This document shows positions 9,470 to 49,059 of a stretch of 64,000 nucleotides of DNA, in pieces. The stretch's first letter is position 1. The number at the start of each line of letters is the position of its first letter. The stretch is from Thermoanaerobaculia bacterium (lineage in GTDB: Bacteria; Acidobacteriota; Thermoanaerobaculia; Gp7-AA8). The position numbers were made by a program, and so were the translations under genes. The stretch is taken from contig DASVEE010000025.1 of NCBI GenBank assembly GCA_036380735.1, positions 3,041 through 67,040 on the forward strand. Reading direction: 5' to 3'. Under the pieces are notes generated by a model. That model had not been told where the DNA came from. It saw only the letters and a program-made list of their open reading frames with translations, and ran no database searches.

Positions 9470-9507
9470 GCGATCGGGCCGATGACACGAAGAGAAGGTC
9501 GGCGGGG

Positions 9508-9606
9508 AAACGATAGGACCTATAGGACGGATGGGACAAATAGGACGAATGGGACTGAACGACGTCTGTCTGTCCTATAGGTCCTATTCGACCCATCGTC
9601 CCCCCC
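9508..9606. repeat. ATAGGAC-iterated palindromic element (copy 2)
   Basis: AACGATAGGACCTATAGGACGGATGGGACAAATAGGACGAATGGGAC - loop - GTCTGTCCTATAGGTCCTATTCGACCCATCGTCCCCCC; between convergent genes. Confidence 0.85.
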
Positions 9607-18354: not shown

Positions 18355-18412
18355 CGGGACCATAGGTCTCATTCGTCTATGGGTCCAATTCGTCCCGTCC
18401 CATCGTTACCCC
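18355..18412. repeat. short degenerate ATAGGAC-family hairpin
   Basis: GGGACCATAGGTCTCATTCGTCTATGGGTCCAATTCGTCCCGTCCCATCGTTACCCCC between convergent genes; shares ATAGGTC / ATTCGTCCC / CCATCGTT termini with the family. Confidence 0.5.
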
Positions 18413-20911: not shown

Positions 20912-21247
20912 GGGGACGATGGGACCTATAGGACGAATAGGACCCATGGGACGGATAGGACGTCGGGGCGCGGACAGGGTGTGTCGGGGCGCGGACAGGG
21001 TGTGTCGGGCCTCCGACAGGGTGTGTCGGGCGTCCGACAGGGTGTGTCGGGCCTCCGACAAGGTGTGTCGGGCCTCGGACAGGGTATGTCGGGCGTCCGA
21101 CAGGGTGTGTCGGGCCTCCGACAGGGTATGTCGGGGCGCGGACGCGGTGCGTCGCAGGCCCGGCACGAACGGAACTTACAGGACGTGCACTCCGCTCCGC
21201 GGAGCCATTCGTCCCATAGGTCCCATTCGTCCCATTCGTCCTATCTA
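20912..21247. repeat. composite ATAGGAC-family element carrying an internal 21-bp tandem array
   Basis: Left arm GGGACGATGGGACCTATAGGACGAATAGGACCCATGGGACGGATAGGAC (20912-20962), right arm CCATTCGTCCCATAGGTCCCATTCGTCCCATTCGTCCTATC (21205-21247); about 190 bp between them is a tandem array. Confidence 0.85.
20965..21152. repeat. tandem array, about 9 copies of 21-bp unit GACAGGGTGTGTCGGGCCTCC
   Basis: Direct reading: CGGACAGGGTGTGTCGGGGCG / CGGACAGGGTGTGTCGGGCCTC / CGACAGGGTGTGTCGGGCGTC ...; each unit contains the mini-palindrome GTCGGGCCTCCGAC. No unique spacers, so not CRISPR. Confidence 0.85.
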
Positions 21248-23818
21248 ATGATGTGAATACGGCGTCTGCAGCGGCGCCACCTGGACCACGGTCATCATGC
21301 CGCGGTCTTCGTGCGCCAGGATGTGGCAGTGGATGACGTAGTAGCCGGAGTAGTCGACGAAGCGGCTGCGCAGCTTGAAGTGCCCCGGGATCTGCACCAC
21401 CGTCGCCCCCTGGCTGTCGACGAACGTGCGGCCGGACGGCATCGGGAAGACGTCCCACCAGATGCGGTTGTTCGGCGGCACGGTGGCGCCGCACGGCTGC
21501 CAGGTCTTCGAATCGTTCGGATCCAGCAGGCACTGGCCGGGACGCACGTTCGTGGGATCGACCGTGTACAGCGGCATCGCGGCGACGTACGTCGAGGGCG
21601 TCGTGACCGGCTTCTTGTTGCCCGCCACCGCGTCCATGGTCAGCTCCGTATCGCTGACGATCGACATCACCATCCCCGGCGCCATGGCTCCGCCGCTGGT
21701 GCTGACGCCATTGATCCAGATCCAGTCGCCGACCTGGAAGTCTTTGGTGAACGCGGTGCCGACACCGGTCACCGTCGATGTATTCGCTGTCGGCGTTGCC
21801 ATCACGACCGTCACCGTGCCGGCGCCGTCGGCCGTCGAGGCCACGGCGTTCGGGTCGAACACCTCCGTCACCTGGAACGGGTTGATGTGGATGTGGAACG
21901 GATGGGAGATCTGGTTGCCCGTCGCCGGCGGATACGTCTTGTTGACGATCTTCCACTCCTCGGCCTTGTTCAGGCCGACCACGACGCCGAGCTCCCCGTC
22001 GAACTGCTTGCCGTCGATGGTCTGCTTCGACGCCGGCGGCGGACCGGGAGGAATCGCCGACGAAGCGAAGACGATGGTCTTCGTCCCCGTCACGTCCTCG
22101 TCCTTGATGTCGGCGAGGAACGCGGGGAAGGTGGGGGCGTTGGGCATGAACTGCATCGCCGGCCCGTCGGGCGTCACGTTCACGGTGAGGAGCGTCGCCG
22201 GCGCAACCGCGGGCTTGGCCGGCGGCCGGTCGCTCGCATCGACCGTGTTGTAGACGAGCACCGCGTACGAGTTGTTGCCGTTCGGCACGTATTTCGGCGC
22301 CTTCACCAGCAGGTCGGCGCGGTTGCCCGAGGCGAGGAGGAACGCGCGGTTGAAATTGCTCGAGCTGCCGTAGTTCGCGTCGTTGAACTGCACGCCGTCC
22401 TGTGCGAGCTGCTTCCACTGCAGCCCCGTCGCCGGCGCGGCGAAGTACACGCCGCCGCGGCCGGACGTGTTGGCGATGCGCCACATCTGCACCGAGCCGC
22501 CCGCCATTTCCAGCGTCGGCTGCAGCGCGCCGTTCACCGAGTACTGCGGACCCGGCCCGCCGCCTCCGCCGAACAGCAGTCCGGGCGTCGTGCCGAGCTG
22601 CTGGATCACCATCGTCTTCGCGTTCGACGAGCGCGTCCACTTCACACCGTTGACGTTGCCGTAGTAGGCATTGATGGCGTCGTCGTAGTCGCCCTCGATG
22701 ATCAGCGCGCCGGTCATGCCGTTCAGGACGTTGATCGTCGTGGAGCCGTGCTTGTGCGCGTGGTACCAGTGCGTGCCGGGCGCCTGTCCCATTACCAGCG
22801 GACGTTTCGGCGCCGCCGCCTCATCCACCTCGGCCGATCCCGCTCCGTCCGTGTTCGGCGTGTGCACGTGTGCGGACGCGGCCCCGGGGATGATTGTCGT
22901 CGCCGTCGACGCCGTGTACAGCGGAAGCTGGAAGCAGTACGGATACGCCGCGACGTAGTACTGCGGCCAGTTCCCCTGCTCAATCAGCTCGTTGTTCGCC
23001 TTGAACCATGCCGGCGCGTGCGTCTCCACCGGATCCATCAGCGTCTTCTGCAGCCCCGCCGACAGATCGCTCCAGCGGCGCGGCCACATGGCCGTCGGGC
23101 CGGCCGCCTTCAGCTTCTGCGTGCACTGCGCGAAGAACTTCGCGAACTCGTCCTTCACCATCGCCTCGGTGATCAGCGGCTCGTTGCTGCCGCCCGTCTT
23201 GCGCGGCGCGGGGCGGATGTTGAGGAACACGTTGTCCGCCGTGGTGTTCGGGCTCGTGTGCGTCCCGTGGTAGTGCATGTTCGTGTAGACCGAGCCGGCG
23301 AAGCAGTCGGGATACTGGTCGGCGCCCGCGCCGGTGCCGGGATAGGAGGAGGTCTCGTCGCACTTGCCGTCGTCGACCCCGGGGAACTTGTTGGCGTCGA
23401 TGACGTTGAGGAACGTCAGCGTCACGATGTCGCCGGCGCGCGCGCGCAGCGTCGGCCCCGGCCGCGGATCGGTGATCGTCGACGACGGCGGATTCCAGCT
23501 CGACGGAGCGGTGGCGCGGTACGCGCGCACCCACTGCGGGTAGCACGGCCCGCCGACGGTGGTCGTCATGCGCACCTGCTCCGAGACCGTGTACAGCGTG
23601 CCGTTGAGCACACCGTCCTTCGTCACGATCTCGTCGAGCACCGGCAGCGCCTGCGTCGGCGTGCACTTGATCGTGTTCGTCGGAGTGGTGGCCTTCGCGC
23701 CCGTTCCGCTTCCGCGTTGTGCCATGGCCGGCGGCACCAGCAGCGCCGTCGCGAGCAGCAGGAGCGACAGCCTGCGTGTAATTGCGTGAATGGAAGAAGG
23801 CGATTTGCGCACGTTCAT
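21245..23818 (-). CDS. multicopper oxidase (three-domain laccase-like, 857 aa, secreted)
   Basis: Start MNVRKSPSSIHAITRRLSLLLLATALLVPPAMAQ (signal peptide); four copper-ligand motifs: HYHGTH, HWYHAHKHG, HPFHIHINPF, HCHILAHEDRGMM. The longer listed ORF (to 24076) has an Arg-rich non-native N-extension and is rejected. Confidence 0.85.
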   Translation of the reverse strand: MNVRKSPSSIHAITRRLSLLLLATALLVPPAMAQRGSGTGAKATTPTNTIKCTPTQALPVLDEIVTKDGVLNGTLYTVSEQVRMTTTVGGPCYPQWVRAYRATAPSSWNPPSSTITDPRPGPTLRARAGDIVTLTFLNVIDANKFPGVDDGKCDETSSYPGTGAGADQYPDCFAGSVYTNMHYHGTHTSPNTTADNVFLNIRPAPRKTGGSNEPLITEAMVKDEFAKFFAQCTQKLKAAGPTAMWPRRWSDLSAGLQKTLMDPVETHAPAWFKANNELIEQGNWPQYYVAAYPYCFQLPLYTASTATTIIPGAASAHVHTPNTDGAGSAEVDEAAAPKRPLVMGQAPGTHWYHAHKHGSTTINVLNGMTGALIIEGDYDDAINAYYGNVNGVKWTRSSNAKTMVIQQLGTTPGLLFGGGGGPGPQYSVNGALQPTLEMAGGSVQMWRIANTSGRGGVYFAAPATGLQWKQLAQDGVQFNDANYGSSSNFNRAFLLASGNRADLLVKAPKYVPNGNNSYAVLVYNTVDASDRPPAKPAVAPATLLTVNVTPDGPAMQFMPNAPTFPAFLADIKDEDVTGTKTIVFASSAIPPGPPPASKQTIDGKQFDGELGVVVGLNKAEEWKIVNKTYPPATGNQISHPFHIHINPFQVTEVFDPNAVASTADGAGTVTVVMATPTANTSTVTGVGTAFTKDFQVGDWIWINGVSTSGGAMAPGMVMSIVSDTELTMDAVAGNKKPVTTPSTYVAAMPLYTVDPTNVRPGQCLLDPNDSKTWQPCGATVPPNNRIWWDVFPMPSGRTFVDSQGATVVQIPGHFKLRSRFVDYSGYYVIHCHILAHEDRGMMTVVQVAPLQTPYSHH

Positions 23819-24291: not shown

Positions 24292-24375
24292 TCGATAGGA
24301 CGCAGCCTCAAACCCGCGGAGCGCCTGGTCCCATCCGTCCTATTCGTCCCATTCGTCCTATCCGTCCTATCGTCA
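24292..24375. repeat. ATAGGAC-family element (short left arm)
   Basis: GTCGATAGGACG - ~25-nt loop - GTCCCATCCGTCCTATTCGTCCCATTCGTCCTATCCGTCCTATCGTCA; the terminal TCA is the TGA stop of the gene at 24373..25662. Confidence 0.75.
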
Positions 24376-25662
24376 TCCCCCGCCCATGCGGATGCCGCAC
24401 TGTTTCAGCAGGTCGAACGGCGGCACGCCTCCGGCGAAGATGAAGACGTAGTCGTTGGGCAGGTCGCGCTCCGCGTCGCCGAGGCGCAGCGTCACGCGGT
24501 CGGGGTGGATCACAACCGGCTGCGAGCCAAACAGCGTCTGAATTTTCCCGCCGGCGACCAGCTTCGCGAACGCATCCTCATTCTTCTTCTTGATCCGCAC
24601 CAGCTTGTCGCGCCGGTAGGACAGCGTCACCACGTTGCCCGGCTGCAGCGCCAGGCCGATGGCGGCTTCGACGGCGCTGTCGCCGCCGCCGACGACGAGG
24701 ACGCGCTGCTGGCGGTAGCTCTCCGCGTCCATGAGGCGGTACATGACCTTCGGCAGCTCTTCCCCCGCGACGTCGAGCCGCCGCGGCGTACCGCGCCGCC
24801 CGAGCGCCAGCACCACCGCGCGCGCGCGATGCTCGCCGCGTGCGCTGCGCACGACGAACGCGTCGCCGTCGCGCGCGATCGACTCGACCGGCTCGCCAAA
24901 GCGCACGTCCAGCCCCTTCTGCGCGACGAGCGTCTCGAACAGCTCGAGCAGGCTTTCCTTCGCGTACTCCTCGCGGTCGAGCCGTACGCCGGCCGCGATC
25001 TCCACCGGCTGCAGCAGCACCATCTTGCGCCGCGGGTAGTGGAGGAGGCTGCCGCCGAGGGAGGCTTCCTTCTCCAGCACGACGCAGCGCAGTCCGCGCG
25101 CCGCTGCTTCCGCCGCCGCGCTGAGACCCGAGGGCCCGGCGCCGACCACGAGCACGTCGAGCGCATCGCCGTCGCCCCTGGCGATGTTGCGCATCACCTC
25201 GCGTCCCTGCTTCACCGCGTTCCTTACCAGAGAGAGGCCGCCGAGCTCACCGACGATGTACATCCCCGGGACGGTCGTCTCGTAGTCGTCGGTCAGCAGC
25301 GGGACGTCGGCGCGCGACTTGAGATCGCCGAGACCGACTTCGATCGCGCCGACGGGGCACGCTTCTTCGCAGCGCGCGTGACCGACGCAGCGCAGTCCGT
25401 TCACCACCACCGCCGTCCCGCCGACGATGCCGAGGACGTCGCCTTCAGGGCAGGCGCGCACGCAGGCGCCGCAGCCGATGCAGTGCGCAGGATCGATGAA
25501 CGGGAACTGCGCGTTCGGCTTGTCGATCCCGAGCTGCGCCGCCTCCGTCTTCCGCGCGCGGTCGTGCTTCAGCCGTCGCCGGAACTGCAGCACATACGGC
25601 ACCACGACGCCCGCCGAAATCGCCGCGGCGGCGCCCCACACCAGGAGTGCCTCGGAGATCAT
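24373..25662 (-). CDS. membrane-anchored 2x[4Fe-4S] ferredoxin domain fused to FAD/NAD(P)-dependent pyridine-nucleotide-disulfide oxidoreductase
   Basis: 429 aa; N-terminal TM; CIGCGACVRACP and CVGHARCEEACP cluster motifs; Rossmann GXGXXG VLVVGAGPSGLSAA and a second VLVVGGGDSAVEAA (thioredoxin-reductase-like). Confidence 0.8.
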   Translation of the reverse strand: MISEALLVWGAAAAISAGVVVPYVLQFRRRLKHDRARKTEAAQLGIDKPNAQFPFIDPAHCIGCGACVRACPEGDVLGIVGGTAVVVNGLRCVGHARCEEACPVGAIEVGLGDLKSRADVPLLTDDYETTVPGMYIVGELGGLSLVRNAVKQGREVMRNIARGDGDALDVLVVGAGPSGLSAAAEAAARGLRCVVLEKEASLGGSLLHYPRRKMVLLQPVEIAAGVRLDREEYAKESLLELFETLVAQKGLDVRFGEPVESIARDGDAFVVRSARGEHRARAVVLALGRRGTPRRLDVAGEELPKVMYRLMDAESYRQQRVLVVGGGDSAVEAAIGLALQPGNVVTLSYRRDKLVRIKKKNEDAFAKLVAGGKIQTLFGSQPVVIHPDRVTLRLGDAERDLPNDYVFIFAGGVPPFDLLKQCGIRMGGG

Positions 25663-25668
25663 CCCGCC

Positions 25669-27159
25669 TCAGAAACGGTAGCCGACGCCGACGTTAATCC
25701 GGTGCCCCGCCACAGCGTCGCCGCCGGTCAGCTCCACCTCGGCCCGCGTGAACACGTCGTACGGCAGCTCGATCCACAGGCCGGCGCGAATCCACGAGGT
25801 GATGGTGACGTCGTCGAGCGCCGCTTCGTCGACGGCGATGACGCCGGCCGTCAGCTCCGCCATGTGACCGCCGCCGAAGGAGCGGGCGAAGCGGGTGTTC
25901 GCGAAGACACCGTCGTTGAGCGGCGAGGAGAAGCCGGTGGCGCTGATGCTGGCGCCGACGCCGAAGAAGAGGCTCGGGTGCGACAGGCCGGCGGTGGCGG
26001 AGAACGTGACGTCGTCCTCACCGTTCGCCAGCACGCTGTCCTCTTCGCCCGTGCGGACGCCGCCGCCGACGAAGTAGTTCGGATGCCGCAGCATGACGCG
26101 GAAGCCCTGGCGCAGCTCGTCTTCGATGAGCTGATCGGTCGTGCGCAGGTCATCGTCGATGCCGGGCTGGATCCGCTCGTAGGAGACGCTCAGCGAGGTG
26201 TTCGCGCCGATGCGGCCGATGGCGGTGAGGATCGTGTCGACGCCGCGCTCCTGGTCCGCTTCGCCGGAGATTCCCGCGCGGCCGTGGGCGAAGAAGGAGA
26301 AGCGCTCGCTCGGCGAGTAGCGGCCGTCGACGGCGACGAACGAGCTTTCGTCCGTGTCGTTCTGCGTCTGTACGCCGGCGACGGTGAGCTCCGCCATCGG
26401 CACCGGATTGACGCGCACGAACGCGCCGTACTTCGTCGTCGACGTGTCGGGGGCGAGCTCGGTGATGTTGGGGCGGAAGCCGTAGAACGCGCCCGCCTCG
26501 AAGCCGTCGATGATGCGAACGCGCGCGAGCGCACCGTCGAGATAGCCGAGGCCGATGGCGGGCGTGTTGCCGATGCGTCCGGCTTCGACGGCTACGCGCC
26601 CGTCGAACGGTTCGTAGAGGAGGGACAGCTCATAGAGCCGGTGGCGATCCTGCCCGGCTTCCTGACCGACGCGGAGTCTCGTGCGCACCATGAGCGGTAG
26701 CCCGGCGACGTTGCGTGCGCGGGCGCTGACGCGCGCCAGCGTCCGGCCGTCGCCGCGATCCGTGGTGCCGTGGTCGAGCGAGACGTTGCCGCTGAGCGAG
26801 GTACTCGCGTAACGGCGTCCGCCGCCGAGGCCGGGCATCGCGGGAGGCGGCGGTGGCGGCTGGGCCGCGACCGGAGTGCCGACGCGCCGCACCGCATCGC
26901 CGGCCTGCACCGCCGTCGTCTCGGAGACGATGCGCGCGGACGCCGACTGCTCGGCCGCGAACTGCACCTCGATGACGGCGATGACGTTCCCTCCGCGCAG
27001 CACCTCGAAGCGGTCGCCGACGTTGATCCCCGCGGCGCGGCCGGCGGTGATGTAGATCGTGTTCTCCGTCCGATACCGCACGGCCAACTGCCCCTCGGCC
27101 GCCGCAACTCCGAGGAGCACGATCACCGCGGCGAGCACCGCGCGCGCGGCGGTTTTCAT
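25669..27159 (-). CDS. outer-membrane beta-barrel protein (porin-like), candidate conduit partner of adjacent multihaem cytochromes
   Basis: Start MKTAARAVLAAVIVLLGVAAAEG (signal peptide); 497 aa rich in alternating beta-strand pattern; C-terminal VGVGYRF OMP signature. Start overlaps the upstream cytochrome gene by 4 nt. The listed ORF start 27327 is rejected. Confidence 0.75.
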   Translation of the reverse strand: MKTAARAVLAAVIVLLGVAAAEGQLAVRYRTENTIYITAGRAAGINVGDRFEVLRGGNVIAVIEVQFAAEQSASARIVSETTAVQAGDAVRRVGTPVAAQPPPPPPAMPGLGGGRRYASTSLSGNVSLDHGTTDRGDGRTLARVSARARNVAGLPLMVRTRLRVGQEAGQDRHRLYELSLLYEPFDGRVAVEAGRIGNTPAIGLGYLDGALARVRIIDGFEAGAFYGFRPNITELAPDTSTTKYGAFVRVNPVPMAELTVAGVQTQNDTDESSFVAVDGRYSPSERFSFFAHGRAGISGEADQERGVDTILTAIGRIGANTSLSVSYERIQPGIDDDLRTTDQLIEDELRQGFRVMLRHPNYFVGGGVRTGEEDSVLANGEDDVTFSATAGLSHPSLFFGVGASISATGFSSPLNDGVFANTRFARSFGGGHMAELTAGVIAVDEAALDDVTITSWIRAGLWIELPYDVFTRAEVELTGGDAVAGHRINVGVGYRF

Positions 27160-27965
27160 TCGCGTCCATCCGGATGGCACGAGCGGCAGGCGGTGCTCTC
27201 GTACCGGTAGTTGCGCACGTCGTCGTGCTCGTCGTCCATCTCGTCGCGGCGATGCTCGTGGCAGTTGATGCAGGAGAAGACGCGGAAGTTGTTCTCGTTC
27301 GTATGGCAGTCGTTGCACGAATCCCACGCGCCGCGATGCGGGCCGGAGAAGATCGGGAAGATCTGGTCGTGGTTCGGGAAGAACGCCCCCTCGAACGTGG
27401 CCGTCGAGTGGCAGGTCTCACATTGCCGCGGGAAGCCGGCGTGCGAGGGACGAGCGCGCGAGAGATCGTCGGCGTGACAGGCGATGCAATCGCGGCGGGC
27501 GCCGAAGAAGCGATCGGGCGACTGGGTGTGGCACTCCGCGCACTCGACGCTGACGTGTGCGCCGGTGAGGGGGAACAGCGCGCCGCTATGCACCTCGAGG
27601 ATGCGCGAGCGGTTATGCCAGCCGGTCGTGTCGTGGCAGCGCTCGCAGGCGAACCCGAGCTCCGCGCGATGCGGGTCCTTGTGACAGTCGGCGCAGGCGC
27701 TGCCGACGTGCGCGAAGCGGAGATCCTCGTGGCACCCGGTGCAGTTCACCCCCTTGTGCCCGAAGCGCAGGGGGAAGCCGGTGTGCTTCGCATGATCGAA
27801 GAGGAGGGGACGGCGCAACGAGGTCCAGCTCTCCGCGGTGTGGCAGTTCGAGCACTCCACCGCGATCGGCCCATGCGGATTCTCGACGCGCGGCTGGCTG
27901 ACCAGCCGCAGAGAGCCCGCCACCATGCAGGCGATCGTCAGCACCGCGAAAACGTAGGATTTCAC
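27156..27965 (-). CDS. decahaem c-type cytochrome (paired-CXXCH / c7-like repeats)
   Basis: 269 aa with signal peptide and 10 CXXCH motifs (CSNCH, CTGCH, CADCH, CERCH, CAECH, CIACH, CETCH, CNDCH, CINCH, CRSCH) spaced with conserved His. Confidence 0.85.
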   Translation of the reverse strand: MKSYVFAVLTIACMVAGSLRLVSQPRVENPHGPIAVECSNCHTAESWTSLRRPLLFDHAKHTGFPLRFGHKGVNCTGCHEDLRFAHVGSACADCHKDPHRAELGFACERCHDTTGWHNRSRILEVHSGALFPLTGAHVSVECAECHTQSPDRFFGARRDCIACHADDLSRARPSHAGFPRQCETCHSTATFEGAFFPNHDQIFPIFSGPHRGAWDSCNDCHTNENNFRVFSCINCHEHRRDEMDDEHDDVRNYRYESTACRSCHPDGRE

Positions 27966-28012
27966 GCTTGCGAAGGGGCTTGTGCAAACGGCGTGTCATG
28001 CCGGTAGGCAGC

Positions 28013-28145
28013 CATAGGACGAATAGGACCGATAGGACCGATGGGACGAATAGGACCTATAGGACGGATAGGACCTATCGGTCTCGGGTGGGCGGGGCCC
28101 CATTCGTCCTATAGGTCCTATAGGTCCTATTCGTCCTATCGTTCC
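28013..28145. repeat. ATAGGAC-iterated palindromic element (copy inside the cytochrome operon)
   Basis: Seven forward units CCATAGGACGAATAGGACCGATAGGACCGATGGGACGAATAGGACCTATAGGACGGATAGGACCTATCGG - loop - CCCATTCGTCCTATAGGTCCTATAGGTCCTATTCGTCCTATCGTTCC. Right arm overlaps the 3-prime end of the 23-haem cytochrome gene. Confidence 0.9.
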
Positions 28146-29773
28146 TTTGTCACGTGACACGCCGCGCACGCACGCGGCACGCCCTTGAACCCGGTCTTGT
28201 GGCACTCCGCGCAGCGGACCCGTGCGTGCGCCCCTTCCAGCGGAAAGCCGGTCTTCGTGTGATCGAACGCCACGCGCCCCCACGCCTCCAGGCGATGGCA
28301 GGTCGTGCAGGTGCCGAAGCGCGCGGTCTCGCCGCGGTGCGGGTCGCGGTGGCAGTCGGTGCAGGCGGCCGAGGAGAGGCGGAACTGCACGACGTTCTGC
28401 TTCTTCACGTGGCAGGCGTTGCACGGCACCGCCAGGTGCGCCCCGGCGAGCGGGAACTTCGTGCGCTGATGCTGCTCCACGCCGAAGGTCGAGGGGAGGA
28501 AGCGCGTCACGCTGTGACAGTCGGCGCAGTCGCCCGTCATCTGCCCGGCATGCACGTCGCGATGGCAACTGCCGCAGCGGTCGAAGCGCGAGAACTTCAG
28601 CGCCCGCCCTGTGGTGTGACACGACTCGCACTTGGCCGTGCGATGCGCGCCGCGCAGCGGGAAGCGGGTGGCGTCGTGGTCGAAGCCCGACACCTTGGCG
28701 AAGCCGGCGGTCGAGTGGCAGCTTTCGCACGCTTTGCCGAGGCGGCCCTTGTGTGGATCGGTGTGACAGCCGTTGCAGGTCATCGGCACGCCGCGCAGCT
28801 TCCCGCCGGTGTGGCACTGCGCACAACGCACGGCCGTGTGGCGGCCGGTCAGAGGGAAGCGCGTGCGGGTGTGATCGAAGTTCGCTACGGCGCGGAACGT
28901 GGTCGTGGAGTGACAGCGCTCGCACGATTTGCCGAGACGCCCTTCGTGCGGATCGCGGTGACAGGAGGTGCACGTCTTCGGCGTCCCCTGGAACTTACCG
29001 GCGCGGTGACACTCGGAGCATTGCGCCGTCTTGTGCGCGCCCGTCAGCGGGAAGCCGGTCTTCGCGTGATCGAAGTTCGCTGTCGCCTGCACGCCTTTCC
29101 ACGCGGCGGTGGAGTGGCATTGCGTGCACGTCGGGCCGAAGCGCCCCGCGTGCGGGTCCTTGTGGCAATCGGTGCAGCGCTGGAAGGCGACGCCGCGGAA
29201 GGCGGGCGTCGGGTGGCATTTGGCGCAGGCGACGTTCACATGCTTCCCGGTGAGCGGGAAGCGCGCTTTCGCATGATCGAACTTCGGCGCCGGCTTCCAC
29301 GCCGTCATGGCGTGGCACGACGTGCAGGAGGGGAGCTGCCCCTTGTGCGGATCGGTGTGGCACGACGTGCACGATTGCGAGAGCCCGAGGAACGAGCGTG
29401 TCTTGTGGCAGCTCGCGCACTTGGCTTTCGCGTGCGCTCCTTCGAGCGGGAAGCCGGTCTGGCGGTGATCGAACTTCGCCGGGTCCCAATGGATCAGACG
29501 GAAGGCGCGCCCGTGATGCTCGTTGTGGCAGCGCTCGCACGTGCGGTACTCCGGCCGCGCGTGCAGCCCCTTGCCGGCCTGGATGCGCGCGCGCAGCGCG
29601 GTGTGGCAGGTGAGGCACTTGGCCGGACTCACGCCTTGCTTCGCCTCATGGCACTTGAGGCAGTTCGCCGCCCCTTCCAGCTTCGCGTGCGCTTCGCTGA
29701 GCGGACCGGGGGAGATCTGCGCGTGCGCCGCCAGCGCTCCCCACATCGCTAGCAGCAGGAGCCAGCGTCTCAT
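28136..29773 (-). CDS. large multihaem c-type cytochrome (about 23 CXXCH motifs in 546 aa)
   Basis: Start MRRWLLLLAMWGALAAHAQ (signal peptide), overlapping the upstream membrane-protein stop by 4 nt (ATGA). 23 CXXCH motifs counted, embedded in repeated FDH..TGFPL.GAH.. paired-CXXCH modules. The listed 781-aa ORF includes a non-native upstream extension. Confidence 0.85.
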   Translation of the reverse strand: MRRWLLLLAMWGALAAHAQISPGPLSEAHAKLEGAANCLKCHEAKQGVSPAKCLTCHTALRARIQAGKGLHARPEYRTCERCHNEHHGRAFRLIHWDPAKFDHRQTGFPLEGAHAKAKCASCHKTRSFLGLSQSCTSCHTDPHKGQLPSCTSCHAMTAWKPAPKFDHAKARFPLTGKHVNVACAKCHPTPAFRGVAFQRCTDCHKDPHAGRFGPTCTQCHSTAAWKGVQATANFDHAKTGFPLTGAHKTAQCSECHRAGKFQGTPKTCTSCHRDPHEGRLGKSCERCHSTTTFRAVANFDHTRTRFPLTGRHTAVRCAQCHTGGKLRGVPMTCNGCHTDPHKGRLGKACESCHSTAGFAKVSGFDHDATRFPLRGAHRTAKCESCHTTGRALKFSRFDRCGSCHRDVHAGQMTGDCADCHSVTRFLPSTFGVEQHQRTKFPLAGAHLAVPCNACHVKKQNVVQFRLSSAACTDCHRDPHRGETARFGTCTTCHRLEAWGRVAFDHTKTGFPLEGAHARVRCAECHKTGFKGVPRACAACHVTKER

Positions 29774-30557: not shown

Positions 30558-30592
30558 CTGGTGGCGGACTATGCCACTGGCGGGCCAGGGGG

Positions 30593-30766
30593 AACCGATA
30601 GGACAGATGGGACCGATGGGACCTATGGGACATGGGACCAATGGGACCTATAGGACCTATAGGCCTGCGGACCCTGGCACTTCGTGGGTGGAAGGGGGCC
30701 TACCTATGGGTCCCATCGGTCCCATCGGTCCCATAGGTCCCATTTCCCATCGGTCCCATTCATCCA
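30593..30766. repeat. ATGGGAC/ATAGGAC-iterated palindromic element
   Basis: AACCGATAGGACAGATGGGACCGATGGGACCTATGGGACATGGGACCAATGGGACCTATAGGACCTATAGG - ~38-nt loop - CCTATGGGTCCCATCGGTCCCATCGGTCCCATAGGTCCCATTTCCCATCGGTCCCATTCATCC; in a divergent intergenic region. Confidence 0.9.
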
Positions 30767-30915
30767 ATCCCCACGCAGCTTCGCCGCCCCCGGTCCACAT
30801 TTACTCACGTGATCCTGCTGTGTGGAAGTTAATATGTCCGCCTCTCAACAACACGCACCGTGTCCCGGACGCCGCAGCGGCGCCGTGGGTACGGACGGAA
30901 CTCATAGGAGGCTGG

Positions 30916-32636: not shown

Positions 32637-32663
32637 GGGCGGCCAGGGCCGCCCTTTCTTTCC
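32637..32663 (+). terminator. rho-independent terminator
   Basis: GGGCGGCC-AGG-GCCGCCC perfect 8-bp GC stem followed by TTTCTTTCC, 15 nt after the M36 stop. Confidence 0.7.
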
Positions 32664-32676
32664 CCGGCCGGCCCGG

Positions 32677-32770
32677 AACGCAGAACGCAGAATGCAGAAC
32701 GCAGAACGCAGAATGTAGAAAGAACCGCAGAGGTCTCAACTTCTAAGTTCTACATTCTGCGTTCTGCGTT
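32677..32770. repeat. hairpin whose arms are tandem GCAGAAC heptamers
   Basis: GAACGCAGAACGCAGAATGCAGAACGCAGAACGCAGAATGTAGAA - loop - TTCTACATTCTGCGTTCTGCGTT; a second, distinct iterated-arm palindrome type. Confidence 0.8.
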
Positions 32771-32859
32771 CAATCTTTGTCCCGCGTCCGCCTTCAACTT
32801 TTTTCACGATCCATCTGAAATTTCTCTTCGTCTTCCGCATAGCCGTGTGGAGGAACCAC

Positions 32860-36228: not shown

Positions 36229-36262
36229 GGGACGGATAGGACGGATAGGACGGATGGGACTG
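36229..36262. repeat. half ATAGGAC-family element (left arm only)
   Basis: GGGACGGATAGGACGGATAGGACGGATGGGAC followed by CTTGCGGCGTTGCTGCG, which also occurs in the loop of the copy at 36941..37061; no recognisable right arm. Confidence 0.6.
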
Positions 36263-36319: not shown

Positions 36320-36607
36320 ATGAGCGCTTTGATCATCGTCGACATCGAAGTCACCGATCCCGTGCGGTATGAGGACTACAAGCGCCTCGCCTCGGAGTCC
36401 ATCGCGGCGCATGGCGGGCGTTATCTGGTCCGGGGCGGCGCCAGCGAGGTGCTCGACGGTGACTGGACGCCGCGGCGTCTCGTCGTGCTGCAGTTCGACT
36501 CCGTCGAGCAGGCGAAGGCGTGGCGCGCTTCGCCCGAGTACGCCGAGGCGAAGAAGGTGCGCGAAGGATGCGCGCGCTCGAACATGGTGGTCGTCGAAGG
36601 CATGTGA
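36320..36607 (+). CDS. DUF1330 domain protein
   Basis: 95 aa; strong match to DUF1330 family pattern (IVDIEVTDP..YEDYKRLA...HGGRYLVRGG..EVLDGDWTPRRLVVLQF.S.EQAKAW..SPEY.EAKK.R...A..NMVVVEG). Confidence 0.85.
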   Translation: MSALIIVDIEVTDPVRYEDYKRLASESIAAHGGRYLVRGGASEVLDGDWTPRRLVVLQFDSVEQAKAWRASPEYAEAKKVREGCARSNMVVVEGM

Positions 36608-36895
36608 GCGGTTTGGATCGCCACGCGAGCGGTTTTTCGGCTTACGCAGGCGGTTTGGAGCGCCGCGCGAGCGGTTTTGCGGCTCACGCGAGCGGTTTTG
36701 CGGCCCATGCGAGCGGTTTTTCAGCTCGTGCGAGCGGTTTTTTCGGCTCACGCGAGCGGTTTTTCAGCTCACGCGAGCGGTTTTGCGGCTCACGCGAGCG
36801 GTTTTGCGGCTCACGCGAGCGGTTTTTCGGCTCACGTGAACGGTTTTTCGGCTCACGCGAGCGGTTTTGTCGACTACGCGAGCGGGTTTGTCGCA
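36606..36895. repeat. tandem array, about 13 copies of 22-bp unit CACGCGAGCGGTTTTTCGGCT
   Basis: GAGCGGTTTTTCGGCTTACGCAG/GCGGTTTGGAGCGCCGCGC/GAGCGGTTTTGCGGCTCACGC/... repeated head-to-tail; each unit carries a T4-6 tract, so T-tracts recur every about 22 bp. Begins at the stop codon of the DUF1330 gene. Confidence 0.9.
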
Positions 36896-36940
36896 ACGCT
36901 GGCCAGAGGCGCTGGTGCACGTACTCAGTACCACGACGCT

Positions 36941-37061
36941 GGAATCGGACGAATCGGACAAATAGGACGTATAGGCGTGCGGACCCTGCGGCGTTGCTGC
37001 GGGTGGGTGCGGTCCTATCTGTCCCATTCGTGCTATTCGTCCCATAGGTCCTATCGTTCCC
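36941..37061. repeat. ATAGGAC-family element adjoining the 22-bp array
   Basis: GGAATCGGACGAATCGGACAAATAGGACGTATAGG - loop containing CCTGCGGCGTTGCTGCG - GGTCCTATCTGTCCCATTCGTGCTATTCGTCCCATAGGTCCTATCGTTCC. Confidence 0.85.
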
Positions 37062-37137
37062 TGTTCCGCATCGAACGCCTGTCCACATTTCCCGGCCGGG
37101 TGCGTAACAACCGGCAACTCACCATGGGAACTGCCTT

Positions 37138-40100
37138 TTGCCACTGAAGCTGCTGGAGATCTTCCGCTTCGAGCTCGACTTCCGCATGCGCCGCCCGGCG
37201 ACGTGGCTGCTGCTCCTCATCTTCGTCGGCCTGTCGTTCTTCGCCGCGAAGGGACTGCTGATCGATGAGGCGCAACGCGCCGGCGATCTGTACGCGAACG
37301 GCCCCGCGGGGATTGCGGTGACGCACGTCTTCGTGAGCATGATCGGCATGATCGTATCGGCGGCGCTGTTCAGCGGGGCCGCGCTGCGCGACCTCGAGAC
37401 GCGCATGCATCCGCTGTTCGCCACGTCCCCGATCACGAAGACGGACTACCTCGGCGGCCGCTTCGCCGGCGCCCTGCTGGTGAACCTGCTGCTCGCGACG
37501 GTGGTGCCGTTCGCGTTGATGGTCGCACTCCGGCCGGAGCTCGTGAGTCCGGAGCTCCTCGGCCCCTTCCGTGCCGCGTCGTTCGTGCAGCCCTATCTCT
37601 TCCTGCTGCTGCCGAACATCTTCTTCACCGGGACGGTGCTGTTCGCCGTGGCGGTGCTGACGCGGCGGTCGCTGCCGGTCTTCGCGACCGCGGTGGTTCT
37701 CTTCATCGGGGGCCTGCTGGTCGAAGAGATCGTGGCGGAGCAGTTGGGGCGCGGCGGGCTCGCGTCGCTGCTCGATCCTTTCGGCTTCACCGCGCTCAGC
37801 GAGCTGTGGGAGTTCTGGACGACGCACGAGAGGAACACGCAGCCGGTGCGGTTCGAGGGGTCGCTGGTGTGGAACCGGCTGCTCTGGTTCGGCGCCGGCG
37901 TGCTGGTGCTCGCGTTCACCCGCTACCGCTTCCGGATGGACCTGTACGAAGCGCGGGGACGGCGCCGCGGCGCCAAGGTGGTGGTGGAGGAGGAGGCGAG
38001 TGTGCCGGTGCGCCTGGACGCAATTCCGGTGGCGCCGTCGTTCGGCCCGGGCACGCGGCTGCGGCAGATGCTGTCGGTCGCCCGCGAGTCGTTCCGCGCG
38101 CTTGTGCTCACGCGCGATTTCCTCCTGATCTCCGTGGCGTTGTTCATCCTCGTCCTCCTCGTCGGGCAGACGATGTCCGACAACTTCGGCGTCCCTTTCT
38201 GGCCGCTCACGCAATTCATCGCACCGCTCCTCGGCGGCTTCTTCCCGGCCATGGCGATCTCGCTGCTCACCGCCTTCTATGCGGGGGAGCTGGTCTGGCG
38301 CGAGCGCGACAACGGGCTGGCCGACATTGCCGACGCGAATCCGGTTCCGGGGTGGGCGCTGTTCGCCGGGAAGTTCGCGGCGCTCGCGCTGATGCTGACG
38401 GCGCTGCAGGGCGTGATGATGCTGTCGGGCATGCTCCTGCAGGCATTCGCCGGCTACTTCCGCTTCGAGCCCGCGCTCTACCTGAAGATCGTGTTTGGCT
38501 TGCAGCTCACCGAGTACCTGCTGCTCGCCGCGCTGGCGATGCTGGTGCACGTGCTGGTGAACAACAAGTACTTCGGTCACCTGCTCGTCGTGCTCTGCTA
38601 CCTGTTCATGGTCTTCGGGCGGCGGTTCGGTATTGCGCACAACCTGCTGCTGTACGGTGGCGACGGCGGCTGGGTGTACTCGGATGTCAGCGGCTTCGGC
38701 CCGTTCATGGAAGCGGTGGTCTGGTTCCGGCTGTACTGGACGGGATGGGCGGTGTTGTTCGCGGTGCTCGCGAGCCTGCTCTGGATCCGCGGGCGCGATC
38801 GTGGACTGCGCAAGCGGCTGCGGCTCGTGCGTCTGCGCTTCAATCGCGGCGCCGCGCTGGCGACGGCGGCTGCCGTTCTGCTCATCGTGAGCGTCGGCGG
38901 CTACATCTACTACAACACGAACGTGCTCGCGGGGTACCTCACGCCGTACGCGGCGGGGGAGCTGCGCGCGGAGTACGAGCGCCGCTACGGCAAGTTCGAG
39001 AGAGCCGCGCAACCGACCGTGCGGGGGACGAAGCTGCACGTCGAGCTCTACCCGGAGCGGCGCGTGGTCGATGTGCGCGGCACGTACACGCTGCTGAACG
39101 CGACGGCGCAGCCGATTCGCGCGGTGCATCTGTTCCTCAACCCGGAAGTGGAGAACCGCGCCGTCTCTTTCGACCGGCCGAGCCGTGTGGCCATCGCCGA
39201 CGACAAGCTGGGACATCGCACGTACGAGCTGGCGAGCGCGCTCGCGCCGGGCGAGTCGCTGGAGATGCAGTTCGCCCTGCGCTTCGCACCGCGCGGCTTC
39301 CCCAACAACGATCCGAACACCTCGGTCGTCCGGAACGGGACGTACTTCGATCACAACGGCGGCCGGCGTACGAATCACCGGCGCTGGTTTCCGCTCGTCG
39401 GCTACCAGCCGACGCGGGAGCTGAGCGCGGCACGTGCACGCCGCGAGCATGGGTTACCGCCACGGCCGCTCGCGCGCTCGCTCGACGAGGCGAGCAGCGT
39501 TCACGACTCCGCGGGCCGCGAGTCGATCACGTTCGAGGCGGTCATCGGCACCGACGCGAAGCAGCTCGCCGTCGCACCGGGGACGCTGCGCCGCACGTGG
39601 ATGCAGAACGGCCGGCGCTACTTTCACTACGCGCACGACCGCACCGTGAAGAACTCGTTCGCGATCTTTTCCGCCGACTACGCGGTGCACCGCGAGCTGT
39701 GGAACGACGTGCAGATCGAGCTCTTCCACCATCCGACGCATACGTTCAACGTGCCGCGCTTCGCGCGCAGTGCTCGGGCTTCGCTCGATTACTACACGAA
39801 GAACTTCGGTCCGTATCCGCACAAGCACGTGCGCATCGCGCAGTTCCCGCGCTACGCGAATCTGGCGCACGCGTATCCCGGCACGATCTCCTACGCCGAG
39901 ACGACCGGATGGCTGACACGCATCGACGAGAGCCGGCATTTCGACCTCGCCTCGATGACCGTGGCGCACGAGATCGCGCATCAGTGGTGGGGCTTCCAGG
40001 TGATGCCCGCGGCGGTCGAAGGAGGACCGACGATCGCCGAGGTGCTGTCGCAATACAGCGCGCTGATGGTGGTGGAGAAGATCTATGGGCCGGAGATGGT

Positions 40101-40755
40101 GCGGCGCTTCCTGTACAACACGCGCATCGAGTACCTGAACCGCCGCGGACGGCCGGAGCACCCCGAGGTGCCGCTGCTGCGCGTCACCGACCACGCGAAC
40201 CTGGTCTACCGCAAAGGGCCGCTGGCGATGTACGCCCTGCGCTACTACATCGGCGAGGAGCAGCTCAATGCCGCGCTACGCCGGCTCGTGGAAAAGCATG
40301 GCTCCGGCGAGCCTCCGTACGCGACGACGCGCGATCTCTACCGCGAACTGAAACTCGCGACGCCTCCGGAGTACCACTACCTGCTCGAAGATTTCCTGGA
40401 GACGATCACGCTCTGGAGACTGCGCACGACCGCGGTCACCGCGACGCCTGCCGCCAACGGCACGTGGCGCGTCACGATGGACGTGGACGCGCACAAGCTG
40501 CGCGCCGACGGGAGCGGCAAGGAGACGGAGGTGCCGATGCACGACTTCGTCGACATCGGTGTCTTCGGCCCCACCACGAATGTGAATGAGCTCGGCGAGG
40601 AGCTGTACCTCCAGAAGCACCGCATCCGTTCCGGAGCGCAGCGCATCACGCTGACGGTGAAAGGCAAACCGGGGAAGGTGGGGATTGATCCGCACCTGCA
40701 CCTGATCGACCGCAACTGGATGGACAACGTGCGGCGCATCAGCGGGGTGAAATAG
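37138..40755 (+). CDS. ABC-2-type permease domain fused to M1-family (aminopeptidase N-like) zinc metallopeptidase
   Basis: 1205 aa; TTG start; N-terminal ~550 aa with 10-12 TM helices (ABC-2 permease-like); C-terminal gluzincin domain with HEIAHQWWG ... E about 20 residues later; TAG stop at start of adjacent repeat. No cognate ATPase gene adjacent. Confidence 0.8.
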   Translation: MPLKLLEIFRFELDFRMRRPATWLLLLIFVGLSFFAAKGLLIDEAQRAGDLYANGPAGIAVTHVFVSMIGMIVSAALFSGAALRDLETRMHPLFATSPITKTDYLGGRFAGALLVNLLLATVVPFALMVALRPELVSPELLGPFRAASFVQPYLFLLLPNIFFTGTVLFAVAVLTRRSLPVFATAVVLFIGGLLVEEIVAEQLGRGGLASLLDPFGFTALSELWEFWTTHERNTQPVRFEGSLVWNRLLWFGAGVLVLAFTRYRFRMDLYEARGRRRGAKVVVEEEASVPVRLDAIPVAPSFGPGTRLRQMLSVARESFRALVLTRDFLLISVALFILVLLVGQTMSDNFGVPFWPLTQFIAPLLGGFFPAMAISLLTAFYAGELVWRERDNGLADIADANPVPGWALFAGKFAALALMLTALQGVMMLSGMLLQAFAGYFRFEPALYLKIVFGLQLTEYLLLAALAMLVHVLVNNKYFGHLLVVLCYLFMVFGRRFGIAHNLLLYGGDGGWVYSDVSGFGPFMEAVVWFRLYWTGWAVLFAVLASLLWIRGRDRGLRKRLRLVRLRFNRGAALATAAAVLLIVSVGGYIYYNTNVLAGYLTPYAAGELRAEYERRYGKFERAAQPTVRGTKLHVELYPERRVVDVRGTYTLLNATAQPIRAVHLFLNPEVENRAVSFDRPSRVAIADDKLGHRTYELASALAPGESLEMQFALRFAPRGFPNNDPNTSVVRNGTYFDHNGGRRTNHRRWFPLVGYQPTRELSAARARREHGLPPRPLARSLDEASSVHDSAGRESITFEAVIGTDAKQLAVAPGTLRRTWMQNGRRYFHYAHDRTVKNSFAIFSADYAVHRELWNDVQIELFHHPTHTFNVPRFARSARASLDYYTKNFGPYPHKHVRIAQFPRYANLAHAYPGTISYAETTGWLTRIDESRHFDLASMTVAHEIAHQWWGFQVMPAAVEGGPTIAEVLSQYSALMVVEKIYGPEMVRRFLYNTRIEYLNRRGRPEHPEVPLLRVTDHANLVYRKGPLAMYALRYYIGEEQLNAALRRLVEKHGSGEPPYATTRDLYRELKLATPPEYHYLLEDFLETITLWRLRTTAVTATPAANGTWRVTMDVDAHKLRADGSGKETEVPMHDFVDIGVFGPTTNVNELGEELYLQKHRIRSGAQRITLTVKGKPGKVGIDPHLHLIDRNWMDNVRRISGVK

Positions 40756-40909
40756 GGCCAATGAACGGATAGGACCGATAGGACGAATAGGACCTATAGG
40801 ACGAATAGGACCTCTGACACTTCCGCGCGTGCCGGGCTGCGACCGTCGCGCAGCGGGGTGGGTGGGGTCCCATTCGTCCTATCGGTCCTATCTGTCCTAT
40901 CGTTCCCCC
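40752..40909. repeat. ATAGGAC-iterated palindromic element
   Basis: AATAGGGCCAATGAACGGATAGGACCGATAGGACGAATAGGACCTATAGGACGAATAGGACC - ~50-nt loop with internal CTGCGACCGTCGCGCAG palindrome - GTCCCATTCGTCCTATCGGTCCTATCTGTCCTATCGTTCC. Confidence 0.9.
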
Positions 40910-40935
40910 TTCCCCCGGTGCAGTAGAATCACCCC

Positions 40936-44038: not shown

Positions 44039-44142
44039 GACCGACGACGAATAGGACGATGGGACAAACCGCAGCCGTTAGCCGGCGTGCTGCTGTCCTA
44101 TAGGTCCTATTCGTCCTATTCGTCCCATTTGTCCTATCGTCA
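44027..44142. repeat. ATAGGAC-iterated palindromic element between convergent genes
   Basis: CAGGACGAATAGGACCGACGACGAATAGGACGATGGGAC - loop - GTCCTATAGGTCCTATTCGTCCTATTCGTCCCATTTGTCCTATCGTCA; left end supplies the TAG stop of the peroxidase gene, right end the TGA stop of the minus-strand M1-fusion gene. Confidence 0.9.
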
Positions 44143-48662: not shown

Positions 48663-48753
48663 GTCCCTCTGTATACGGGCGACGGGGCGCGCGGTGTACA
48701 GGGTGAGGGGCGGTTGGTACGAACGGTCGGATTCCGGGGGTAAAGGTGGCGGG

Positions 48754-48838
48754 GACAGGACGGATGGGACGAATAGGACGGATGGGACGGATGGGCCTCC
48801 GGTGAGTCCTATCTGTCCTATTCGCCCTATCCGTCATC
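48754..48838. repeat. ATAGGAC-family element
   Basis: GACAGGACGGATGGGACGAATAGGACGGATGGGACGGATGGG - short loop - GAGTCCTATCTGTCCTATTCGCCCTATCCGTCATCG. Confidence 0.85.
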
Positions 48839-48846
48839 GCGCTGGC

Positions 48847-49059
48847 TTACAGGTCACCCGGCGTCAGACCGGTCCGCTTGGCAATGCGCGCCAGCATCCG
48901 CGGTCCGATCTCATCGTGATCGTGGAACGCGAATACATAGTCCGGCCAGCCTGCACGTTCGAGCACGCGGTGCGACGTGCCGGATTGCCGCTTGAGCGAC
49001 CAGCCGATTCGCGTCAGTGCGGCAAAAACACGGCTTGCCTTGGATGACGGCCAGTTCAT
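48847..49059 (-). CDS. hicA: HicA-family mRNA-interferase toxin
   Basis: 70 aa; conserved HicA core GWSLKRQSGTSHRVL ... DEIGPRMLARIAKRTGL; overlaps hicB stop by 4 nt. Confidence 0.75.
   Translation of the reverse strand: MNWPSSKASRVFAALTRIGWSLKRQSGTSHRVLERAGWPDYVFAFHDHDEIGPRMLARIAKRTGLTPGDL

Follow-up and report, generated by a model that had tools for sequence, protein, structure and literature searches.

What kind of sequence is built from 9-bp units which run head to tail, turn around a loop and return as their own complement, and why does it appear about once per 4 kb among ordinary chromosomal genes? The question is raised by a stretch of 64,000 nucleotides from a Thermoanaerobaculia bacterium (assembly GCA_036380735.1, contig DASVEE010000025.1, positions 3,041 to 67,040), here called the window, and in particular by the element at positions 28013-28145. 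Its arms are made of the 7-mers ATAGGAC and ATGGGAC, each followed by two variable nucleotides. These nonamer-array palindromes are a real, dense and dispersed family of hairpin-forming repeats. With a probability of roughly 0.55 we take them to be amplified members, devoid of an open reading frame (ORF), of a widespread nonamer-array family which is tied to a horizontally spreading gene of the TIGR04258 family.

The reality of the repeat is readily demonstrated. On both strands of the window ATAGGAC is present 68 times, compared to 1.81 +/- 1.40 occurrences expected from dinucleotide-preserving shuffles (maximum 7 in 100). Tandem Repeats Finder reports period-9 arrays at every site of the first-pass list, and clustered motif matches form '+++---' blocks, i.e., ATRGGAC units followed by GTCCYAT units. 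ATRGGAC/GTCCYAT are the sole 7-mers which repeat three times with a period of 9 anywhere in the window. The first-pass annotation of this DNA had described dense, dispersed, internally periodic and non-coding palindromes in at least 15 copies. Motif enrichment and period-9 arrays bear out the description; the count contracts to about 13 clear palindromic arrays plus two to three one-armed or decayed copies, as 36229-36262 has a single arm, 18355-18412 a decayed right arm, and 59745-59788 is very short. The footprint of the arrays is about 2 kb, roughly one third of the 6.4 kb of intergenic DNA in the window, the G+C content of which is 66.8%.

The elements are of high copy number, extragenic and 85-340 bp in size. 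The general layout consists of a left terminus GGGGAACG, a run of ATRGGAC+NN units, a G+C-rich loop, a run of NN+GTCCYAT units and a right terminus CGTTCCCC. The arms comprise 3-8 tandem units (27-70 bp), and in 13 of 13 window elements the ATAGGAC arm precedes its complement. The proposed conservation of the termini largely holds: behind the last unit, 8 of 13 copies have GTCCTAT-CGT(T/C)CCC, and about 7 of 12 have GG(G/A)AACG ahead of the first. Symmetric copies fold as RNA with energies of -80 to -94 kcal/mol (z about -8 to -12). The element which raised the question, E7 (28008-28148, core 28013-28145), may serve as the example. Its seven left units are, in order, ATAGGACga, ATAGGACcg, ATAGGACcg, ATGGGACga, ATAGGACct, ATAGGACgg and ATAGGACct; a 31-nt loop with GGGTGGGCGGGG leads to 4-5 right units and the terminus GTCCTAT-CGTTCC. 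As RNA it folds with -85.2 (z -7.6) and -80.3 kcal/mol (z -9.9), as single-stranded DNA with -43.2 kcal/mol (z -7.0). The stop codon (CTA = TAG) of the gene 28136-29746(-) is located inside the last unit.

The arrays appear to have proliferated recently in this lineage. An independent short-read contig (L099, Logan SRR25158503) is 100% identical to window positions 24345-28068, and both of its ends fall within elements, E6 and E7, which is typical of a dispersed repeat. These breaks and the arrays carried by other Thermoanaerobaculia metagenome-assembled genomes (MAGs) establish that the family is not a peculiarity of the window. Six relatives, in which the cytochrome c peroxidase is 83-89% identical at the amino acid level, have 0 arrays in syntenic loci of 88 kb total, compared to 15 in the 64-kb window. 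Because these six close relatives are free of arrays, the arrays are a lineage-specific bloom. The peroxidase gene itself illustrates this; its product in the window is 100% identical to a protein of a Thermoanaerobaculia (Acidobacteriota) MAG. All homologues share the C-terminal sequence …AELLRDPHQ, and E12 (44022-44145) starts right after that codon (CATCAG|GGACGACGACAGGACGAATAG…). It provides the peroxidase with a new six-residue tail and a stop codon; the orthologous sites in the six relatives are without E12. At the junctions no consistent direct repeat was seen, and downstream synteny is lost in the relatives, so that no exact empty site is definable. The total absence from close relatives is what one expects of the recently proliferating, non-autonomous element which the first-pass annotation had proposed.

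Beyond this lineage, a one-genome-per-species scan for three consecutive units returned at least 98 loci, and all statements on array loci below refer to those listed. Among them 47 are palindromic. These derive from Acidobacteriota (Thermoanaerobaculia, Blastocatellia/Pyrinomonadaceae and others), Planctomycetota, Lentisphaerota/Victivallales, Verrucomicrobiota, Desulfobacterota/Syntrophia, Myxococcota, Nitrospirota, Hydrogenedentota, Armatimonadota and Patescibacteria. The 7-mer core is common to at least nine phyla with host G+C contents from 39% to 68%. The ATAGGAC arm is first in 42 and second in 7 instances. An assembly artefact was rejected because the elements are found again in independent assemblies, among them long-read MAG contigs >1 Mb and a closed chromosome. 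On viral contigs the motif marks genuine, one-stranded collagen-like genes (e.g., GATGAQGPIGPIGPIGAT in L229); the motif by itself is not diagnostic of the element. As a vector the viral contigs offered only such true collagen-like genes and a single locus with the gene discussed next, and a BLAST search of a plasmid collection with the element gave no match.

Which gene accompanies the arrays? In a Saccharibacteria MAG (L098) the ORF between arrays matches PF05635 (23S rRNA intervening sequence protein), TIGR02436 and TIGR04258 ('four helix bundle suffix domain', abbreviated 4HB-suffix in the following). Five more motif-selected loci, from Patescibacteria, Blastocatellia, Armatimonadota, Verrucomicrobiota and Acidobacteriota, carry a TIGR04258 gene 0-8 bp from an array, which makes six loci in all. 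All-against-all clustering of the ORFs within 1.2 kb of the arrays identified the 4HB-suffix family as the only specifically recurring one; it is followed in rank by ABC-F ATPases and Ser/Thr kinases, which are ubiquitous and vary in their distance, and no transposase or reverse transcriptase family recurs next to the arrays.

The reciprocal comparison started from 80 metagenomic loci picked by protein alone. In 18 of the 80 at least two exact units are located within 250 bp of the gene, with a chance expectation of about 0.07 units per flank. In 46 of the 80, units are present in-frame inside the gene, where they encode the …NRSYxTYRSY… linker between helices 3 and 4, which connects the bundle to the suffix domain. 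Flanking and interior units are the very ATRGGAC/GTCCYAT units of the window. In copies from the Candidate Phyla Radiation (CPR) units also encode an insertion in the loop between helices 1 and 2, and the start codon is inside a unit. A sister clade possesses an (x-S-D)n linker encoded by GTCCGAC/GTCTGAC/GTCAGAC nonamers, and these genes are flanked by palindromic arrays of just those nonamers. When interior and flanking units are compared, the unit types agree in 23 of 23 informative loci (17 SY/SY, 6 SD/SD, 0 crossed); calculated by hand as 1/C(23,6) this corresponds to ~1e-5, uncorrected for phylogeny. The association of gene and array is exclusive and reciprocal, and the unit types of interior and flank match.

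On long contigs of gene-bearing Acidobacteriota, ATAGGNCCTAT-type mini-palindromes are present only at the immediate flanks of the gene and nowhere else within +/-10 kb. The called neighbours of the TIGR04258 gene on long contigs are unrelated housekeeping genes. The gene with its mini-arrays looks like the basal state, and the window looks like an ORF-less bloom.

The 4HB-suffix proteins are 60-65% identical across five phyla, and the family comprises at least 8000 candidates at E <= 1e-20. In its fold the protein agrees with XCC0516, with S23p and with Avd, which is the accessory protein of diversity-generating retroelements (DGRs) and to which sequence identity is about 10%; by sequence alone only XCC0516 is detected, and weakly. 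Searches of PADLOC and PHROGs gave no matches for the protein. The fold is that of a nucleic-acid-binding accessory protein without a catalytic domain. If the protein is involved in mobility at all, it therefore needs a partner.

Several observations on this gene stand on their own. In two SD-type loci (L163, 3532-3730, and L174, 1424-1620) the 4HB-suffix ORF has an array behind it, and beyond the array lies a CxxC…CxxC zinc-finger segment of the topoisomerase type. IMG labels several family members 'restriction system protein'. In a plasmid collection the protein has one match, in the cultured organism Prevotella nigrescens (NZ_CP082843.1, L279; 44% identity). This gene has neither ATAGGAC arrays nor S-Y or S-D linker arrays; directly downstream, at 4640-4720, TAGGAA/TTCCTAG-type palindromes are located, possibly a third unit type. 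Further, the Saccharibacteria locus L098 encodes at 102-2975 a 957-aa surface-type protein with in-frame unit runs (…SPISPISPI…, …ISPIEPISPIGPIEE…). Thus, 9-bp arrays can enter real coding sequence with the frame intact.

In the reading which we prefer, the units would exist in most genomes solely as mini-palindromes hugging the TIGR04258 gene, sometimes in-frame inside it. In a few lineages, this Thermoanaerobaculia genome included, arrays would have escaped from the gene and multiplied to their present density, with whole elements being copied into new sites. They would have settled where insertion is tolerated, right at the 3' ends of genes, occasionally supplying the stop codon. After insertion the hairpins may act incidentally as 3' mRNA-stabilising or processing structures. 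Between phyla the family would travel together with the TIGR04258 gene, as this is the simplest explanation of a conserved 7-mer at G+C contents from 39% to 68%. How the protein might take part can be stated only tentatively: possibly it recognises the folded nonamer array, as single-stranded DNA or RNA, and works with a separate catalytic partner. A more far-reaching version, which we consider doubtful, holds that the orphan PF05635/TIGR04258 protein is the recognition subunit of a mobile element without transposase, with SY and SD types each matched to their own units. Such a protein would bind the folded array and recruit a host polymerase, reverse transcriptase or recombinase to copy the hairpins.

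A number of points weigh against a tie between the window elements and this gene. The 64-kb window contains neither a 4HB-suffix gene nor a remnant of it (phmmer, family HMM, tblastn), only matches of arrays to the linker. Of the 98 array loci listed, 92 are not beside the gene, and 62 of 80 gene copies are without exact flanking arrays. Genomes which carry the gene are usually without a bloom, i.e., the gene is not sufficient, and a catalytic domain is missing from its product. The match of unit types could originate from shared ancestry or gene conversion instead of recognition. The polarity of the arrays around the gene is inconsistent. Finally, neither a target-site duplication nor a precise empty site could be defined.

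Could the arrays have spread passively, i.e., by slippage, hairpin-induced replication errors and homologous recombination or gene conversion between copies, without a protein devoted to it and with the 4HB-suffix gene as a selfish passenger which lands in arrays or moves between them by homology? The way in which the copies change bears directly on this question. We parsed 37 elements from the window and related loci. Left and right unit numbers are unequal in 25 of the 37. When arms are matched in register at the three variable positions, i.e., A/G at unit position 3 and the two spacer bases, the sum is 265, compared to 247 +/- 5 with shuffled unit order and 211 +/- 8 with units drawn from the pool; none of 500 shuffles reached 265. 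The arms retain a trace of true palindromy, and compensatory change is not what maintains them. The first-pass annotation had regarded the right arm as the reverse complement of the left and expected pairing to be upheld by compensatory changes. The 7-mer cores do pair, yet the complementarity is not exact; pairing derives from the invariant core, and the variable positions are weakly in register. Since every unit has the same invariant 7-mer, the arms pair in any 9-bp register, and the hairpin therefore survives frequent gain or loss of units by slippage.

Unequal arms, local tandem duplications and repeats nested in loops all suit passive spread. So does a locus (L161, 1490-1700) in which a truncated second 4HB-suffix copy runs out in an SD-type array and the full copy follows directly downstream, an arrangement which on its sequence suggests recombination at arrays. 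A protein without a catalytic fold and a gene without bloom in most genomes are equally compatible with a passenger. What passive spread explains is growth in place; it does not explain some 15 unrelated new sites which share termini and loop motifs. In the window, GGGYGGGYGG(G) is positioned beside the right arm in five loops (851-861, 28086-28097, 30691-30706, 36997-37009 and 40857-40869), always on the + strand regardless of the direction of the flanking gene. GCGGACCCTG is common to the loops of E8 and E10, and loops from other Thermoanaerobaculia MAGs have an inner stem CCnCCCnCCC…GGGnGGGnGG. As loop motifs and termini are common to different copies, whole elements were probably copied to new sites rather than formed afresh at each. 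Passive spread also leaves the total absence from relatives unexplained, and in-frame arrays at several positions of the gene, along with a unit which contains the start codon, speak for something beyond chance landing. We consider it unlikely, though it deserves to be taken seriously.

Two further observations concern the loops. The fixed + strand of the G-motif may reflect an orientation by replication rather than transcription; the GC-skew profile of the window, with which the elements were to be oriented relative to replication, was uninformative. In two Myxococcota/'Deltaproteobacteria' MAGs element loops of about 110 nt (L068, 4430-4540, and L096, 625-735) are 80% identical. The L068 loop has no match in Rfam even at permissive thresholds. 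The shared loop may be a conserved cargo or a small RNA within the array palindrome.

The next candidate is an element similar to repetitive extragenic palindromes (REPs) and their REPIN derivatives, or to miniature inverted-repeat transposable elements (MITEs), which is moved in trans by a REP-associated tyrosine transposase (RAYT, Y1) or another transposase elsewhere in the genome. The resemblance is real: high-copy intergenic palindromes, conserved termini and a preference for gene 3' ends and convergent gaps, as in REPs (PMC3733652). The first-pass annotation had suggested a RAYT or IS200-type partner. The genes of the window, according to a codon-usage map and Pfam annotation, are ordinary chromosomal ones, i.e., peptidases, cytochromes, ABC transporters and a GGDEF regulator; Pfam annotation reveals no transposase, RAYT, integrase, reverse transcriptase or PF05635 gene among them. 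The transposase search covers 64 kb of this genome, which leaves this candidate some room. Nevertheless, none recurs beside the arrays in the 98 loci listed, a target-site duplication is not evident, a GTAG or CGTC tag is missing, the arms are tandem arrays of 27-70 bp, and the same unit is present in at least nine phyla whereas REP families are species-specific. Taken together, a transposase acting from elsewhere appears improbable.

Are the elements instead structures selected by the host, i.e., 3'-end hairpins such as terminators, mRNA stabilisers or RNase III sites, or arrays of protein-binding sites? Their position invites the idea. Elements occupy 5 of 7 convergent, 7 of 27 tandem and 2 of 7 divergent gaps, and 11 of 15 are within 9 bp of a stop codon. 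The earlier statement that all copies are intergenic is true in a loose sense only: the copies are between genes, yet four stops are inside or abut terminal units, where a TAG ends the respective gene (28136-28138, 21245-21247, 44036-44038 and 40753-40755). The hairpins are extremely stable, and ATAGGNCCTAT itself is a short palindrome suited to a dimeric binder. On the other hand, none of the window hairpins is followed by a U-tract, and folding has no consistent advantage on the transcribed strand (3 elements better, 2 worse, 2 equal). Rfam has 0 matches in the window at gathering score; at permissive thresholds an element with a large loop finds only generic long-hairpin miRNA matches far under threshold. 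Copies exist in divergent gaps and as solo arms, too. Six close relatives have the same genes without arrays, which are dispensable for these genes. We assign host selection a low probability. Remnants or exons of collagen-like (Gly-X-Y) genes, or a CRISPR-like array, are effectively refuted: ATA-GGA-CNN does read I-G-X and the motif does mark genuine collagen-like genes of viral contigs, but the GPIGPI frames, correctly called spurious at the outset, run on both strands of one locus with TAG in one frame, use ATA and GGA codons against a third-position G+C near 0.88, vary at codon positions 2 and 3 and have real genes on both sides, and the 'spacers' of the supposed CRISPR are just 2 nt.

The individual copies vary considerably around the common plan. 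E1 (795-912) has 5 ATAGGACnn units, a 17-nt loop with GGGAGGGCGGG, 5 nnGTCCYAT units and the terminus CGTTCCCC; it adjoins the TGA of the gene 913-3870(-) and folds as RNA with -81/-82 kcal/mol (z -10.5/-11.8). The hairpin at 6013-6145, initially listed as a divergent relative, is modest (z -3.5) and contains single GACCTAT/ATAGGTC units only, and its membership is doubtful. E3 (9505-9606; 5 left, 2-3 right units; -47 kcal/mol, z -4.5) occupies a convergent gap, with the stop of 9612-10841(-) 6 bp away. The decayed copy at 18355-18412 has degenerate right-arm units ending in CGTTACCCCC and lacks a significant hairpin (z -1.2). In E5 (20912-21247) 5 left and 4 right units enclose a 249-nt loop, and a TAG right behind the last unit is the stop of the gene 21245-23818(-). 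The loop holds a tandem array (20962-21154) of 9.2 copies of the 21-bp unit GTCGGGsCkCCGACAGGGTGT, each with a small GTCGG…CCGAC palindrome. E6 (24292-24375; -33 kcal/mol, z -2.7) does have the two arms ascribed to it, yet with 1 left unit versus 5 right units; its last unit is 2 nt from the TGA of the gene 24373-25662(-).

E8 (30590-30770) is rich in ATGGGAC and located in a divergent gap; its 7-8 left and 5-6 right units, with a 53-nt loop between them, fold with -120/-122 kcal/mol. The solo left arm at 36229-36262 (+) consists of 3 units without a partner arm and forms no hairpin (z +1.9). E10 (36938-37064), upstream of the gene 37138-40755(+), has 3 left units (ATCGGAC variants), a loop of 39-43 nt with GCGGACCCTG and GGGTGGGTG, and 5 right units. 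E11 (40748-40912; -93.7 kcal/mol, z -8.5) follows the same gene. Its first unit is ATAGGGC, the TAG of which ends 37138-40755(+); in all, 5-6 left and 4 right units enclose a 55-nt loop with GGGGTGGGTGGG at its end, and the terminus is CGTTCCCCC. E12 is positioned between convergent genes. A unit TAG (44036-44038) is the stop of the peroxidase gene, and the last unit is 2 nt from the TGA of 44140-47715(-); the fold amounts to -63.6 kcal/mol (z -8.1). E13 (48750-48842; 4-5 left, 3 right units; single-stranded DNA fold -30.6 kcal/mol, z -6.0) is 9 bp from the stop of a HicA-like gene, 48847-49059(-). The short or decayed copy at 59745-59788, with 2 GTCCCAT units and a small hairpin (z -4.8), is 4 bp from the stop of 59792-63130(-). 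In E15a (63174-63478) a 203-nt loop separates 5 left from 5 right units. This loop (63225-63427) is an unrelated long imperfect palindrome, 63263-63306/63331-63374, 84% complementary. E15b (63493-63612) is a tandem duplicate (97%) of the right arm of E15a plus flank, 63411-63478 to 63524-63591, with an offset of 113 bp. With the loops of E5 and E15a in mind, other repeats seem to land preferentially in hairpin loops.

Other features of the window are mentioned in passing. A PT-TG pre-toxin domain protein (57922-59727) and the HicA-like toxin gene (48847-49059) are each flanked by array elements. A single-copy palindrome at 32676-32771 has arms of 7-bp units (GAACGCA/GAATGCA x6 … TGCGTTC x3). 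It is located between two + strand genes just past a canonical-looking terminator hairpin (32638-32665), represents the second case of unit-built arms in the window and is absent from all other loci compared. At 36606-36893, 13.6 tandem copies of a 21-22-bp unit, GAGCGGTTTT(T)CGGCTCACGC, each a mini hairpin, begin at the stop of a DUF1330 gene and end beside E10.

Why should these elements be of interest? REPs, MITEs and similar interspersed palindromes of bacteria are as a rule confined to one species and linked to a transposase; the nonamer family differs. Distinctive are modular arms which pair in any register and a 7-mer core across at least nine phyla. The sole genetic partner is a small helical-bundle protein related to Avd and to the 23S rRNA intervening sequence proteins. 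To our knowledge, no function other than that in DGRs is on record for the Avd/S23p-like family with its many thousands of members. If the link is causal, it provides a testable route to the function of those proteins and to mobility without a recognisable transposase. If the protein were indeed a recognition subunit, this would be the first function for the very large PF05635/TIGR04258 family and would explain 23S rRNA intervening sequences as well as 'four helix bundle' genes inside operons. On the practical side, the elements break short-read assemblies, as at both ends of L099, spawn spurious collagen-like ORFs and alter the 3' ends and stop codons of genes in MAGs of Thermoanaerobaculia and others.

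How do the nonamer arrays compare to known systems? Window elements failed the defining tests of size, architecture and end tag for REPs and bacterial interspersed mosaic elements (BIMEs), that of a parent insertion sequence for MITEs, and those for CRISPR arrays, collagen genes, Rfam RNAs, rRNA intervening sequences and DGRs. A CRISPR array was rejected as 7-bp units, variable gaps of 2 nt and inverted arms stand against repeats of 23-50 bp and unique spacers of similar length. Collagen-like genes have the identical 9-nt periodic DNA, with GGACCTATA read as G-P-I, but theirs are long, one-stranded and truly coding ORFs on viral contigs, whereas the window elements are two-stranded, non-coding palindromes. 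Unlike the Avd of DGRs, the genes and arrays have neither a reverse transcriptase nor a template/variable repeat pair beside them. The cyanobacterial STRR heptamer arrays and small dispersed repeats are reportedly intergenic, composed of short tandem units, with small repeats nested in hairpins. The nonamer arrays resemble them in intergenic location, short tandemly iterated units and the nesting of small repeats in hairpins; they differ by a unit of 9 instead of 7 bp, obligatorily palindromic arms, other host taxa and the gene association, although one palindrome of 7-bp units does exist in the window (32676-32771).

The intervening sequences of 23S rRNA carry S23p (PF05635) between inverted repeats which form a long stem; they are considered selfish, and versions without an ORF are known (PMC4990558, PMC11270868). 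Common to the two systems is the protein superfamily which is carried between inverted repeats. The window has no PF05635 ORF enclosed by inverted repeats; in other genomes such an arrangement is partly realised (L082, L090, L098, L108). In contrast to intervening sequences, all window copies are between protein-coding genes, none in rRNA, of which the window has none, and the protein has the extra 'suffix' domain. 23S_rRNA_IVP genes have been reported in cas operons and CPR rRNA insertions, with repeats not mentioned.

Bacterial MITEs (Correia/NEMIS, ERIC, RUP, Nezha) are likewise ORF-less and non-autonomous, have terminal inverted repeats, fold as RNA and reside beside coding regions. They differ in that no target-site duplication or parent insertion sequence was found for the nonamer arrays, the inverted repeats of which are internally periodic and of variable length; for a parent with the same termini, no transposase family stands beside the arrays of the loci listed. 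REPs have a conserved GTAG (or CGTC) tetranucleotide tag at one end and are high-copy intergenic palindromes which favour gene 3' ends and convergent gaps (PMC3733652). A REP is a palindrome of 20-40 bp, whereas here the arms are composed of tandem 9-bp units; an unpaired GTAG tag is missing at the GGGGAACG and CGTTCCCC termini, and CGTC is present only within tcGTCCTAT units. The product of the bracketed gene is an Avd/S23p-like helical bundle instead of a HUH/Y1 transposase, and the nonamer unit is conserved across phyla. The initial judgement that the elements are not REP/BIME, ERIC, Correia or CRISPR repeats is upheld by these comparisons of architecture, tag and spacer. The searchable literature, with subscription-only papers and database family notes outside of it, yielded no account of the 9-bp unit, of its arrays or of their link to the gene. 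With REP/BIME and the REPIN/RAYT system the nonamer arrays share high-copy intergenic hairpins, mostly 3' of genes or in convergent gaps, and a lineage-specific abundance; and as in a REPtron a single small gene is bracketed by repeats in other genomes which carry nonamer arrays. Apparently, the nonamer arrays are an undescribed family which works most like REP/REPIN or MITE elements.

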